Below, in pieces: positions 4,046 to 18,642 of a stretch of DNA of 32,000 nucleotides (position 1 is its first letter; every line of letters begins with the position of its first letter). The notes under the pieces were generated by a model. That model was not told the origin of the DNA. It worked only from the letters and a program-made list of their open reading frames with translations, and searched no databases. The position numbers and the translations under genes are program-made. The DNA lies in assembly GCA_030849285.1 (NCBI GenBank), contig CP102982.1, positions 30,001-62,000 on the forward strand, written 5' to 3'. Origin of the DNA: Candidatus Saccharimonadota bacterium. GTDB lineage: Bacteria > Pseudomonadota > Gammaproteobacteria > Enterobacterales > Enterobacteriaceae_A.

Positions 4046-4449
4046 TTTACATTTATTTAAAGTTTTTTATTTATTTTAAAATATATTATTTATTTATTAT
4101 TTATAAAAATAATTTTATACAAATATTCAATTAAAAAAAATTATATATTTAAAATAAATTTAATATAATTATATATTAATTAATATATAAATATAAATTA
4201 ATAAATTATTTATTCAAATAAAATATATATATATCATAAAAATTAAATTTATTATTTAAATAAAAATTAAAATAATTTAATTTTATAAAAATTTAAAATT
4301 TTAATTAGTATTATAATATATATATTTAAATTTAAAAAATAAATGATTTTAAAATTATAAAAAAATATTTAATTATTTTTATAATAAAATAAATAATAAT
4401 TTTATTTATTTAATAATATTAATTAATTTATTTAAACATAGGTAATATT

Positions 4450-7241: not shown

Positions 7242-7858
7242 TTATTTTAAAAATTTTAGAAAATGAAATGCTATTATGTATATTTCTTTAGATTTAATAC
7301 GAGAAGAAACAGGTTTAAAAATTTTAATTTTTTTAAATATTAAAGAAATATATTTAATATAATATTTAAAATTATTACCTTGAAATATTTTTATTATACA
7401 TATCCCTTTAAATTTTAATATATTTTTACAAATTTTAATAACTGATTTAAATAAATTTATTGATTTAGGAATATCAATTGATGAAATTCCACTTATATTA
7501 GGAGAAAGATCTGACATAATAATATCAACTTTATTATAACCAATATAATTAGTTATTTTATCAATAAAATCATTTTTTAAAATATTTTCTTTAAAATATT
7601 TTATACCTTTTATAGGGTTTATTTTTTTAATATCATATGCAATAACAACACCATTTTTACCTATTTTATTTTTAGCATATTTTGACCAACTACCAGGTGC
7701 AGCACCTAAATCAACAACAATCATATTTTTTTTAAATATTTTATAATGTTTTTGTATTTCATCAAGTTTAAACCATGCACGTGATATTAATTTTTTTTTT
7801 TAGAATAGTAAACATATTTATCTTTTAAATTTCTATTTATCCAATTATTTTTTTTCAT
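7242..7858 (-). CDS. rlmE: 23S rRNA U2552 2'-O-methyltransferase RlmE/FtsJ, interrupted by a 1-nt frameshift in an A11 tract
   Basis: ORF 7242-7724 ([11 protein letters not shown]...) matches residues ~53-209 of E. coli RlmE. My translation upstream gives MKKNNWINRNLKDKYVYYSKKK in one frame (from ATG 7858-7856) and (KKK)[23 protein letters not shown] in the ORF frame. Together these match E. coli [33 protein letters not shown]. The two frames meet in the sense-strand A11 run (7791-7801). A12 would restore a collinear protein. Confidence 0.85.
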
Positions 7859-7878
7859 ATAAATTAAAATTGTAAATT

Positions 7879-7942
7879 AAATAATTTAAAATTATAAATT
7901 AAGTTATTTTAAATAATTTAAAATTATAAATCAAGTAATTTT
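7879..7942. repeat. tandem duplication, 2 x 32 nt (30/32 identical) plus a degenerate third copy, in the divergent rlmE/glnS spacer
   Basis: 7879-7910 reads aaataatttaaaattataaattaagttatttt and 7911-7942 reads aaataatttaaaattataaatcaagtaatttt. A partial, indel-containing copy follows from 7943. Confidence 0.85.
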
Positions 7943-12918: not shown

Positions 12919-14031
12919 ATGATTAAAAACAATTTTTTAAATTATAAAATTCAAAAAATTTTAAAAAATTTAATTTATATAAAAAAAAAAATAAATTATA
13001 TTAAAAAGAAAAAACGTTTAATAAAAATTAATAATGAATTTAAAAAAAAAAATTTATATAGTAATTATAATTTTTTTTTAAAATTAAAAAAAGAAATTAA
13101 TTTAATTGAAAATATTTTTAAAAAAATTATTTTTTTGAAAAAAAATATATATGATAATATTGAATTATTAGAGATATTTAAACAAACTAAAGATAAAAGT
13201 ATTTTAAAATATATTATAAAAAATTTAGAACATTTAAATAATATAATAAATAATTTAGAAAATAAATATATATTTTTTAAAAAAAATGATAAATTAAATT
13301 GTTTTTTAAATATTAAATCAGGATCTGGAGGAATAGATTCTCAAAATTGGTGTAATATTCTATTAAAAATGTATTTAAAATGGGCAGAAAAAAAAAAATT
13401 TAAAATTGAATTTATTAATAAAAAAAATAATAATAATAATGGTATTAATTCAATTACTATTAAAATTATAGGTAATTATGCTTATGGATGGTTAAGAACT
13501 GAATCTGGTATTCATAGATTAGTTAGAAAAAATTTTTTAAATAATAAAAAAAGGCATACATCTTTTAGTTCAGTATTTGTTTATCCTGAATACAAAAATG
13601 ATAATATTAATAATAATGTAAATATTAAAGAATCAGATTTACGTATTGATTTATATCGTTCTTCAGGATCAGGAGGTCAACATATAAATAAAACAGAAAC
13701 AGCAGTAAGAATTACACATTTGCCAACAAATATTGTTGTAAAATGTCAAAATAATCGTTCACAATATATAAATAAAATTTCTGCTATTAAACAATTAAAT
13801 TTAAAATTATTAAATTTAGAAAATTTAAAAAAAAAAAAAAAAATAAAAAAAATTAATGATAATAAATTAAATATTTCTTGGAGTAATCAAGTAAGATCAT
13901 ATATTTTTGATAATTCTATTGTTAAAGATGTTAGAACAAATTTAAAGGTTAAAAATATAAAATATATTTTAGATGGTAATTTAGATTTATTTATTAAAAA
14001 TAATTTAAAAGCTGAAATAAATAATGATTAA
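12919..14031 (+). CDS. prfB: peptide chain release factor 2, encoded in a single frame
   Basis: 370 aa, collinear with E. coli RF2 from residue 1. It has GSGG, YAYGWLRTESGIHRLVRK, RHTSFSSVFVYPE, the GGQ motif (SGSGGQHINKTETAVRITH) and QNNRSQ. There is no internal TGA or frameshift site. The stop overlaps the lysS start (ATGATTAA). Confidence 0.93.
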   Translation: MIKNNFLNYKIQKILKNLIYIKKKINYIKKKKRLIKINNEFKKKNLYSNYNFFLKLKKEINLIENIFKKIIFLKKNIYDNIELLEIFKQTKDKSILKYIIKNLEHLNNIINNLENKYIFFKKNDKLNCFLNIKSGSGGIDSQNWCNILLKMYLKWAEKKKFKIEFINKKNNNNNGINSITIKIIGNYAYGWLRTESGIHRLVRKNFLNNKKRHTSFSSVFVYPEYKNDNINNNVNIKESDLRIDLYRSSGSGGQHINKTETAVRITHLPTNIVVKCQNNRSQYINKISAIKQLNLKLLNLENLKKKKKIKKINDNKLNISWSNQVRSYIFDNSIVKDVRTNLKVKNIKYILDGNLDLFIKNNLKAEINND

Positions 14032-15508
14032 AAAAAAAAAATTATATATTAATTATAAAATCAAAAAATTATATATTAAAAAATATATTTTTAAAATTAA
14101 AAAAAAAAAAAAATTTATACGTATAAATATATCTAATCAACTTCATAAAAAATATAATATTATAAAAAAAAAAAAAAAAATAGTAAGTGTTGCTGGAAGA
14201 ATGATAAATAAAAGAATAATGGGATCTGCATCTTTTGTAAAATTAAAAGATATGGGGGGTTATATTCAGTTATATATAACAAAAAATAAAATATCTAAAA
14301 CTTTATATGAAAAAAAATTTAAAAAATGGAATTTAGGAGATATTATAGGAGCAAAAGGTTTATTATTTAAAACAAAAACTGGTGAAATTTCTGTTTTTTG
14401 TATAGAATTGTATATTTTAAAAAAATCAATACATATTTTACCTGAAAAATTTAATAAAATTTTAGATCAAGAAATAAGATACAGACAACGTTATTTAGAT
14501 TTAATAATTAATAATAAATCTAATTATATATTTAAAATTCGCTCTAAAATTATATTTTATATACGTAATTATATGAATATAAATAAATTTATAGAAGTTG
14601 AAACTCCAATAATTCAAACAATTCCTGGAGGTGCTACAGCAAAACCATTTATAACTTATCATAATTCTTTAAATATTAAAATGTATTTACGTATTTCACC
14701 TGAATTATATCTTAAACGTTTAGTAATAGGGGGATTTGAAAGAGTTTATGAAATAAATAAAAATTTTAGAAATGAAGGAATATCTTCTAAACATAACCCT
14801 GAATTTACAATGATGGAAATTTATATGGCATATTCAAATTATAAAATATTAATTAAATTTATTGAATGTTTATTTAAAAATATAGTTAAAAAAATTATAG
14901 GTAAAACAAAAATTTTATATAAAAATAATTTTTTAAATTTTAATATACCTTTTAAAAAAATGACAATGTATAATTCAATTAAAAAATATTATAAATATAT
15001 TAATTTAAAATATATTTATAATATTTTTTATTTAAAAAAAATTTTTAAATCTATAAATATTAAAATTAAAAAATATTATAAAATTGGAAATTTTATTAAT
15101 AAAATATTTGAAATGATGATTATACCAAAATTAATAAAACCTACATTTATTACTAAATATCCTATTGAAGTTTCACCATTAGCTAAAAGAAACTCAAAAA
15201 ACCCAAGTATAGCTGATAGATTTGAATTATTTATAGGTGGTTTAGAAATTTGTAATGGTTTTTCGGAATTAAATAATTCTAATGATCAAAATAAAAGATT
15301 TAAAGAACAAATTAAAAATTTAAAAAAAAATAATAATAATACATCATTTAATGATAAAGATTATATTAAAGCATTAGAATATGGTTTACCTCCAACAGCG
15401 GGTTTAGGTATAGGAATAGATCGTATGATAATGATATTAACTAATAGTAATACAATTAAAGAGGTAATTTTATTTCCAATAATGAAAAAAAATGAAAATA
15501 AACTATAA
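14024..15508 (+). CDS. lysS: lysyl-tRNA synthetase (class II)
   Basis: 494 aa with VAGRMINKRIMGSASF, RYRQRYLDLI, EVETP, IPGGATAKPFITYHN, FRNEGIS, HNPEFTMME and GLPPTAGLGIGIDR. It sits next to prfB as in E. coli. The start is uncertain because the N-terminal 55 aa are poly-Lys rich. Confidence 0.95.
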   Translation: MIKKKKLYINYKIKKLYIKKYIFKIKKKKKFIRINISNQLHKKYNIIKKKKKIVSVAGRMINKRIMGSASFVKLKDMGGYIQLYITKNKISKTLYEKKFKKWNLGDIIGAKGLLFKTKTGEISVFCIELYILKKSIHILPEKFNKILDQEIRYRQRYLDLIINNKSNYIFKIRSKIIFYIRNYMNINKFIEVETPIIQTIPGGATAKPFITYHNSLNIKMYLRISPELYLKRLVIGGFERVYEINKNFRNEGISSKHNPEFTMMEIYMAYSNYKILIKFIECLFKNIVKKIIGKTKILYKNNFLNFNIPFKKMTMYNSIKKYYKYINLKYIYNIFYLKKIFKSINIKIKKYYKIGNFINKIFEMMIIPKLIKPTFITKYPIEVSPLAKRNSKNPSIADRFELFIGGLEICNGFSELNNSNDQNKRFKEQIKNLKKNNNNTSFNDKDYIKALEYGLPPTAGLGIGIDRMIMILTNSNTIKEVILFPIMKKNENKL

Positions 15509-18143: not shown

Positions 18144-18166
18144 AATTTTAAAATATTTTTATAAAA

Positions 18167-18495
18167 GTTAATTGATAAGCTGGATTCTGTCATTGAGCAG
18201 TAATTTATCTAGACTAATAATTACTTATTAGTTCAAGCAATTAACCCAGAGTTTAGTATGAGCAATACAACTCTTATTTAATTTTGCACCGAGTAGAGTT
18301 TACAATATCGTTAATTGTTACCAAAACGATGTATGTTTTAAACATACTATTTCACCCTTTCTTATAATATTTTATAAGTGGTTTTTTTTCTGTTGTACTT
18401 TTCGTAATTTAATCCCAGGTATTACCTGGTACTCTGCTCTTTGGGGTCCAGACTTTCCTTCTTTATTTTTTTTTAAAGATTACTGCTTAATTAAC
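18167..18495 (-). ncRNA. rnpB: RNase P RNA (bacterial type A, reduced)
   Basis: This is a non-coding island with raised G+C. The minus strand reads GGAAAGTCTGGACCCCAAAGAGCAGAGTACCAGGTAATACCTGGG ... AAAGGGTGAAA ... GTAAACTCTACTCGGTGCAA ... CTAGATAAATTACTGCTCAATGACAGAATCCAGCTTATC. This parallels conserved blocks of E. coli M1 RNA. The ends GTTAATT/AATTAAC can pair as P1. The ends are approximate to a few nt. Confidence 0.85.
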
Positions 18496-18642
18496 TTATA
18501 AATTATTATAACATTTTTAAAATATTATTTCAATAAATATATTAATTAAATATACTAATAATTTAAAAAATATAAATGTTTAATTAATAAATTTTAAAAT
18601 TTATTTAATAATTAAAATGAAAATATAAATTATATAAATTTA

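Follow-up and report, generated by a model that had tools for sequence, protein, structure and literature searches.

The DNA analysed here, referred to as the window, is a stretch of 32,000 nucleotides (nt) from contig CP102982.1 (positions 30,001 to 62,000). It carries prfB, the gene for peptide chain release factor 2 (RF2), in which the Ser-Pro-Phe (SPF) tripeptide of the codon-recognition loop is replaced by Asn-Phe-Leu and the programmed +1 frameshift site is absent. We propose, with a probability of roughly 0.6, that the gene encodes a genuine, selectively maintained RF2 whose decoding loop has been eroded by GC-to-AT pressure under selection that is relaxed, not absent. The features of the locus are the following.

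12919..14031, + strand: prfB, peptide chain release factor 2, a single open reading frame (ORF) of 370 codons (370 aa) from ATG to TAA
12979..12999, + strand: ancestral +1 frameshift position, now in frame as I-K-K-K-I-N-Y, with an A11 run inside
13318..13350, + strand: SGSGGIDSQNW block, aligned to E. coli GSGGTEAQDW
13417..13449, + strand: N-K-K-N-N-N-N-N-G-I-N segment, in place of E. coli EESEGEVAGIK
13531..13566, + strand: codon-recognition loop, N-F-L-N-N-K-K-R-H-T-S-F, with RHTSF kept
13672..13680, + strand: GGQ peptidyl-tRNA hydrolysis motif, intact (SSGSGGQHINKTETAVRITH), residues 252-254 (SGSGGQHINKTE)
14024..15508, + strand: lysS, sharing 8 nt with the end of prfB, its stop included (ATGATTAA)

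At a GC content of 16-17%, the window encodes housekeeping functions and genes for biotin, riboflavin and lipoate, as in a very reduced enterobacterial insect symbiont. It is 99.77% identical across 12.3 kb to CP102981.1 (Enterobacteriaceae bacterium PSpicST2, 225,865 bp), and the RF2 protein is identical in both Cacopsylla picta symbiont assemblies (~226 kb). The closest RF2 proteins are those of Psyllophila of Cacopsylla pruni, C. pyri and C. pyricola and of Secondary_AM of Anomoneura mori, all of them psyllid co-symbionts with genomes of 221-239 kb (for this group see PMC12592730). These matches identify the window as DNA of a 'Ca. Psyllophila'-type co-symbiont of the psyllid C. picta, with a genome of ~226 kb. 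Beyond the window, 30 kb more of the sister strain PSpicST2 were read, along with 20-40 kb each from six relatives; the genomes used included PSpruni (CP181095.1), PSpyr (CP116499.1), PSpyc (CP102983.1), PSmali (CP181165.1) and Secondary_AM (AP031381.1), and comparison DNA came from Makana ('Ca. Makana argininalis', JBISJS010000001.1) and the Donacia marginata symbiont (CP046184.1). Release factors and stop codons are unmentioned in the main text of the Psyllophila, Secondary_AM and Triozidicola genome papers. Scans of the window for tandem repeats and Rfam families returned low-complexity AT repeats, three tRNAs and rnpB only, the last (RNase P RNA, RF00010, 202 bits) lying at 18160..18498 on the minus strand, where it fills an apparent gap between gyrB and an MFS (major facilitator superfamily) transporter gene.

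Identity of prfB and its former frameshift site

By its profile matches the prfB product is a bacterial class I release factor, RF2. It clears the RF2 model TIGR00020 only narrowly (384.3 bits against a cut-off of 370), scores 226-232 bits with the RF1 models, under their cut-offs of 400-423, and contains the PCRF (PF03462, 135.8 bits) and RF-1 (PF00472, 112.9 bits) domains. E. coli RF2 structures align to it at E=1.5e-95, from residue 3 to residue 365 in one unbroken alignment. Compared with E. coli RF2 (PDB 1GQE, 5MDV) it has the same domains and ~47% full-length identity, and it shares GGQ, RHTSF, the glycine of helix alpha5 and prfB-lysS synteny; it differs in having no CUU-UGA frameshift, NFL for SPF, a shorter loop, a neutral 167-172 segment and the substitution K177N. 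The gene's own stop is TAA, in contrast to the TGA of E. coli prfB. NCBI names the RF2 of the relatives only 'PCRF domain-containing protein'.

The initial annotation described prfB as one frame collinear with E. coli RF2 and without the autoregulatory frameshift site, and the 370-codon ORF and the unbroken alignment bear this out. The codons at the position of the E. coli CUU-UGA-C, a site that lies near codon 26 in prfB genes with the programmed shift, are ATA AAA AAA AAA ATA AAT TAT, in frame, and neither an AGGGGG resembling a Shine-Dalgarno (SD) element nor a CUU-stop is present at the homologous prfB position in the window. The gene is continuous through this position also in PSpicST2, PSpruni, Secondary_AM, PSpyr, PSpyc and Makana. 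As a positive control, prfB of the Donacia marginata symbiont keeps ATT AGG GGG TTT CTT TAA T (L020 3061..3078). None of the psyllid co-symbionts examined retains the +1 frameshift autoregulation, in line with the earlier suggestion that selection on UGA-based autoregulation is relaxed here. Such a loss is an already known kind of variation: a minority of bacteria with prfB reportedly lack the programmed frameshift naturally, as Baranov et al. in 2002 and Bekaert et al. in 2006 are said to have described. The window gene is like those genes in being a continuous ORF without SD-like element or CUU-stop, and differs in that the loss occurred within Enterobacterales, where the Donacia symbiont, the sole non-psyllid relative whose DNA was examined, keeps the site. 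At the Donacia marginata shift site TAA stands in place of the canonical TGA as the stop, and autoregulation in this symbiont would therefore respond to RF1 and RF2 together, not to RF2 alone.

Poly(A) tracts lie within prfB at 12981, 13042 and 13388 (A11 each) and at 13827 (A17), that at 12981 exactly at the former frameshift site. These tracts are slippage-prone, yet the prfB frame is intact in two strains. The prfB-lysS gene order is the same in all relatives, and E. coli has the same arrangement (PMC11903333).

Erosion of the decoding loop in RF2 and its absence in RF1

In place of SPF, residues 205-207 of the window protein are N-F-L (AAT TTT TTA, 13531..13539), and the stretch of loop before RHTSF lacks one residue compared with E. 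coli RF2. The initial annotation had reported both the broken tripeptide and the shorter loop, and alignment likewise found no intact SPF: HMMER sets N-(gap)-F here, MAFFT sets N-F-L and puts the gap further on, and Ser and Pro are lost in both. Among 111 non-psyllid nearest homologues, mostly from AT-rich symbionts, position 205 is Ser in 103 and Asn in 8, position 206 is Pro in 110 and position 207 is Phe in 108. The exact tripeptide occurs in 138 of 150 diverse representatives (50%-identity clusters), with SPY in six, and in 102/120 nearest homologues. Set against these frequencies, the departure of the loop from SPF is more than chance variation. The rest of the functional core has fared differently. 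The GGQ motif and RHTSF are intact, R213-H-T-S-F being invariant, which agrees with the earlier statement that GGQ and its flanking blocks are well conserved. Domain 3 with GGQ, the catalytic half, is kept, as is the end of the loop with RHTSF, and it is Ser-Pro-Phe and the Gly-rich part of the loop that have given way to Asn, Phe, Leu and Lys.

Two further regions depart from E. coli RF2. The GSGGTEAQDW block, which we take to be the helix alpha5 tip reading U1, keeps Gly138 in the window and carries E140D and D143N; across the 111 outgroup homologues position 140 is Glu in 98 and Asp in 13, Asp143 is kept in 109, and Asn143 is found in three clade members. The acidic patch 167-172 is neutralised in the window protein, which has Asn at 167, 170, 172 and 177, in addition to Leu at 207. 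Position 172 is Glu or Asp in 110/111 outgroups and Asn in all five clade RF2s; position 177 is Lys in 111/111, and K177N is found only in the window. Positions 167 and 170 vary widely among symbionts, and the patch is often low in acidity in AT-rich symbionts that keep SPF. We therefore set these two positions aside as a sign of an omnipotent factor, as they are too variable among the SPF-keeping symbionts. None of the substitutions in the window protein (S205N, F207L, E167N, E170N, E172N, K177N) is among those tested experimentally.

When prfB of related genomes was compared, the loop proved to be eroded throughout the clade, the tripeptide varying between lineages.

Donacia symbiont: SPF (AGT CCT TTT)
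Secondary_AM and Makana: NPF (AAT CCA TTT)
PSpyr and PSpyc: NLF (AAT TTA TTT)
PSpic (window): NFL (AAT TTT TTA)
PSpruni: KTV (AAA ACT GTT)

The spacing from K204 to the loop His is 7, 8 or 9 residues within the clade, and nearly all loop changes are from GC to AT; sister lineages have different replacements, which arose through AT-ward substitutions and small indels.

RF1 served as the control. Its gene prfA is listed in the published Secondary_AM gene table, prfA loci were found in five relatives with that protein as query, and RF1 proteins were found for both C. picta strains. In the sister strain PSpicST2, where the prfA/smpB locus of this species was read, prfA lies at 95,762-96,799 of CP102981.1, between infA and smpB. 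The RF1 loop RIP[EK]T[ED][ST][QK]GRIHTS, with its PxT motif, is intact in six clade genomes including that strain. A loss of prfA that would leave RF2 as the sole factor is thus rejected, prfA being present in both C. picta strains and five relatives. We also counted departures at invariant positions, defined as those at least 97% conserved in the outgroups: clade RF2s depart at 10-14 of 99 such positions (13 in the window, which keeps 86/99), and clade RF1s at 4-6 of 89, all of them conservatively. Among 14 neighbouring genes only one is less conserved than that of RF2, which has 72% identity to PSpruni in a range of 66-91%; RF1 has 77%. The prfB ORF is nevertheless intact in every clade genome examined, the window and five relatives among them. 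On these comparisons the erosion is clade-wide and specific to RF2. The relaxation is likewise specific to RF2, the loop, at 7-9 residues, varying among close relatives while the PxT loop of RF1 stays invariant, and the earlier inference that selection on RF2 codon reading is relaxed is supported in this respect.

Other components of termination were noted alongside. Neither prmC nor prfC appears in the Secondary_AM gene table or among the termination factors listed for the Trioza apicalis symbionts, the two sources consulted for them, and one of the two factor lists in the T. apicalis supplement gives only RF2 under termination. The order infA-prfA-smpB-tmRNA (transfer-messenger RNA) is the same at all six prfA loci of the clade that were read (L017 11058..11857; L002-L006), and the tmRNA tag peptides differ between lineages (AEKNLKYSLVA, AKKNYSLAA and others). 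In PSmali (CP181165.1) prfA is open for only 295 codons (L003 10166..11053), its N-terminal part being out of frame or missing.

Loss of SPF is not unique to the window and, as judged from the homologues, recurs in several tiny-genome symbionts. Asn205 with Pro-Phe kept is seen in 9/120 nearest homologues (Donacia symbionts, one Buchnera, Makana). Deeper erosion is found in one Makana (NSL), in Lightella (NPI), in a metagenome-assembled genome (NPL) and in the endosymbiont of the weevil Sipalinus gigas (NLL, on a 230,546-bp contig), which we take to be a Nardonella-type weevil symbiont. In the co-resident Carsonella of A. mori RF2 has NPL and the loop His is replaced, and RF1 is degenerate too (PKN). 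The two Carsonella loops read PKN...GKMQTS in RF1 and NPL...NKIQTS in RF2, the loop His being lost in both, and its release factors CRAM_0470 and CRAM_1310 are N-terminally truncated (230 and 265 aa; PMC11427311 supplement). The RF2s of Carsonella, the S. gigas endosymbiont, Makana and Lightella resemble that of the window in that the tripeptide has eroded AT-ward, independently and with S205N as the first change, in genomes that are tiny and AT-rich; Carsonella differs in that its loop His and N-terminal domain are gone and its RF1 is degenerate, whereas Psyllophila has an intact RF1 and a full-length RF2. Carsonella is reported to keep UGA stops, many of them in ATGA overlaps, together with RF2 (PMC2704378). 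With its NPL loop this means that an RF2 without SPF would be compatible with UGA-ending genes, or that such genomes tolerate poor termination. In the literature searched we found no description of a natural SPF replacement, and no paper connecting SPF, RF2 and Carsonella.

Stop codons and tryptophan codons

All 22 complete coding sequences of the window end in TAA. The initial annotation had reported this count, which is correct but unremarkable given the base composition: the ratio of A to G at two-fold purine third positions, 97.9:2.1, predicts 95.9% TAA and 2.1% each of TAG and TGA, which gives 22 of 22 TAA a probability of 0.39; from the clade-wide frequency (165/171) the probability is 0.46. 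Uniform TAA as a signal of UGA avoidance was accordingly rejected. Gene ends were counted only for ORFs with orthologues, and each non-TAA stop was checked against orthologous C-termini. Of 171 genuine gene ends, 165 are TAA, three TGA and three TAG, TGA and TAG each standing at ~1.75% against the 2.1% expected. The non-TAA stops are listed here.

TGA: smpB of PSpicST2 (L017 11058..11513)
TGA: smpB of ET-AT1-13, at the same position
TGA: holA of PSpyr (Psyllophila of C. pyri)
TAG: rlmN of PSpicST2
TAG: holA of Secondary_AM
TAG: gltX of PSpruni

Downstream of all three genuine TGA stops, the reading frame meets a TAA after 0-8 codons. Four TGA 'stops' of PSmali and the TGA of PSpicST2 tilS were excluded as not genuine, since they close frameshifted or truncated pseudogene fragments. 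In Makana, prfB itself (loop NPF) ends in TGA, so RF2 there would have to end its own synthesis at UGA; in the called coordinates this gene ends at 4098 and lysS starts at 4095 (L019 4095..4098), a 4-nt overlap. UGA is still a rare but real stop codon, no rarer than UAG and at the frequency expected from mutation bias. The view that UGA is essentially unused is not supported, in view of the smpB stop shared by the sister strain and ET-AT1-13, of holA in PSpyr and of Makana prfB.

Nothing in the coding sequences points to a change of the code. The window's 22 genes contain no in-frame TGA and are all full-length under table 11, and 90 of their 90 Trp codons are TGG at a third-position GC (GC3) of 5.8%. 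The tRNA-Trp of Secondary_AM has the anticodon CCA (published gene table); no tRNA-Trp gene lies in the window or in the loci read from this species. Recoding of UGA to Trp was rejected on the absence of in-frame TGA, the 90 TGG codons and the CCA tRNA-Trp of Secondary_AM. The further suggestion that RF2 is on its way out, in a state preceding recoding, is not supported either, as prfB is kept in every clade genome examined, the published ratio of nonsynonymous to synonymous substitution rates (dN/dS) is 0.06 and no in-frame TGA is seen. Both tmRNA and smpB are present.

Several genes away from prfB are broken. In the window this is the case only for rlmE (ftsJ; 7242..7890, minus strand), whose first ~23 codons (MKKNNWINRNLKDKYVYYSKKKN) are out of frame with the remaining 160-codon ORF, the junction falling at a Lys (AAA) run; the orthologues in relatives have 205-207 aa. 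The break could be bridged by transcriptional slippage, or it could be a real pseudogene or a homopolymer sequencing error. In CP102981.1, tilS (L017 8289..9612) is split by a 1-nt frameshift, its first fragment ending at an out-of-frame TGA and the sequence ...EILLLGHHL going on in the +1 frame; tilS of PSmali is truncated too. In PSmali, premature TGAs truncate smpB, ileS, lepA and tilS, which agrees with the published note of many pseudogenes in that genome.

How the eroded factor may work

Taken together, these data look like mutational erosion of RF2, not a step into a new genetic code, and the gene does not appear about to be lost. We propose that, with ~2% of genes ending in UGA, RF1 covering UAA and populations that are presumably small, selection on UGA-versus-sense discrimination and on RF2 dosage control would be weak. 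The factor is probably still active at UAA and, with lower efficiency, at the few UGA stops, and its failures would be cushioned by the nearby in-frame TAA and by tmRNA/SmpB. Its retention may be explained by the residual UGA stops together with roles of RF2 that RF1 does not replace; in E. coli, RF2 could not be deleted even from a TGA-free strain with RF1 present (PMC11903333).

Several points weigh against this proposal. The excess of RF2 over RF1 departures for the window pair (Fisher P=0.044) is, the sequences being phylogenetically related, descriptive. The published dN/dS values, 0.060 for prfB and 0.044 for prfA (Secondary_AM versus a Psyllophila genome; PMC11427311 supplement), speak for purifying selection but are rough at a saturated dS of 3.2. 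The one TGA stop of this species lies in the sister assembly and not in the window, and as the sister-strain genome was sampled to ~27%, a genome-wide TGA count is an extrapolation. Finally, a loop without Ser, Pro and Phe and one residue shorter may not read UGA at all, because the single change S205P already impairs UGA reading, and F207T shifts specificity, in E. coli.

The last point leads to the alternative that survives best, although we consider it doubtful: RF2 would be a UAA-only factor and UGA effectively unassigned. At the few genes ending in UGA, near-cognate tRNA-Trp would carry translation on as far as the following in-frame TAA, or tmRNA would rescue it. Such a factor would be the natural counterpart of the engineered one-stop-codon E. 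coli and a codon-capture intermediate, close to the idea of the initial annotation. Ser205 touches the second codon base, and RF2 depends strongly on the functional groups of that base (PMC5776981). In E. coli, S205P alone attenuates or abolishes UGA reading and spares UAA (PMC11903333), and here all three residues are replaced, the loop length is altered, the UGA-dependent autoregulatory site is lost, and the closely spaced TAA codons and tmRNA with smpB would provide the means of rescue. Against this, the smpB TGA is found in two lineages that have diverged and TGA is as common as TAG, Asn205 recurs in symbionts that otherwise keep Pro-Phe (9/120), and Trp positions are free of UGA even under strong AT pressure. 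SPF is also missing from Carsonella, a symbiont dependent on ATGA overlaps, and in our judgement Asn could offer a hydrogen-bond donor and acceptor as Ser does.

It is unlikely that specificity has instead broadened into a loose or 'omnipotent' factor acting on UAG and partly on UGG, through loss of Phe207, of the acidic residues 167-172 and of Lys177. The residues concerned are the right ones, the window having Asn at 167, 170, 172 and 177 and Leu at 207: F207T and E167K broaden E. coli RF2 to all stops (PMC11903333), and in Salmonella E167K, E170K, E172K and K177R raise release on UAG and UGG 10-70 fold (PMC7530605). The substitutions found here differ from those tested, however, UGG termination is toxic in Salmonella (PMC7530605), positions 167 and 170 are variable and a low-acid patch is common in SPF-keeping AT-rich symbionts, and RF1 is strongly conserved in the same genomes and so would not be redundant. 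The engineered RF2s (S205P+E170K of the one-stop-codon 'Ochre' E. coli; F207T, E167K) are altered at the same positions, 205, 207 and 167-172, and likewise meet almost no TGA stops, whereas the clade's factors are natural, carry other residues (N, F/L/T, L/V) and vary between lineages with indels.

Decay of prfB toward loss, as a functionless remnant or as a gene kept only for translational coupling to the overlapping lysS, is very improbable. prfB is among the fastest-evolving of the 14 neighbours, clears TIGR00020 narrowly and is named in relatives for its PCRF domain only, but its ORF is intact across the clade in spite of the A11-A17 tracts, GGQ and 86/99 invariant residues are kept and the published dN/dS is 0.06. 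An artefact of sequencing or assembly in an AT-rich, homopolymer-rich genome, for which the frameshifts in rlmE and in tilS of the sister strain might speak, is extremely unlikely: two independent C. picta assemblies have the same prfB with one synonymous difference, changes of the same kind recur in five more genomes, which come from different laboratories, and the loop differences are substitutions inside an intact frame.

Broader implications can be drawn at graded strength. We hold it as a minority possibility that the SPF 'anticodon' is dispensable in vivo here and, independently, in Carsonella, Makana and the weevil symbiont, with UGA read without SPF or with RF2 confined to UAA. The tripeptide-anticodon model rests on mutagenesis of the E. 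coli factors, and structural studies and simulations still disagree on what Ser205 does. Were UGA read without SPF, recognition of the second base would not lie with the tripeptide, a matter that simulations already dispute; were RF2 confined to UAA, it would represent the long-postulated, never observed codon-capture intermediate between rare UGA and loss of prfB with UGA read as Trp. In practical terms, annotation pipelines already downgrade such RF2s to 'PCRF domain-containing protein'.

Endosymbionts in which UGA has become Trp (Hodgkinia, Zinderia, Nasuia, Stammera, with Providencia siddallii PSAC at an early stage) share with this clade a tiny reduced genome, rare UGA stops and weakened constraint on RF2; here, by contrast, prfB is intact, UGA Trp codons are absent, the tRNA-Trp of the relative checked is CCA and UGA ends genes. 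There is no evidence of ongoing code change, and the clade offers natural material for testing how the second and third bases of stop codons are read by RF2: natural RF2s with Ser, Pro and Phe variously replaced, under purifying selection and facing few UGA ends, are ready test cases. With UGA rare, autoregulation gone, the loop eroding and prfB and tRNA-Trp(CCA) unchanged, this well-sampled clade would stand on the path to UGA as Trp before any recoding, so that the order of events in stop-codon reassignment would become testable.

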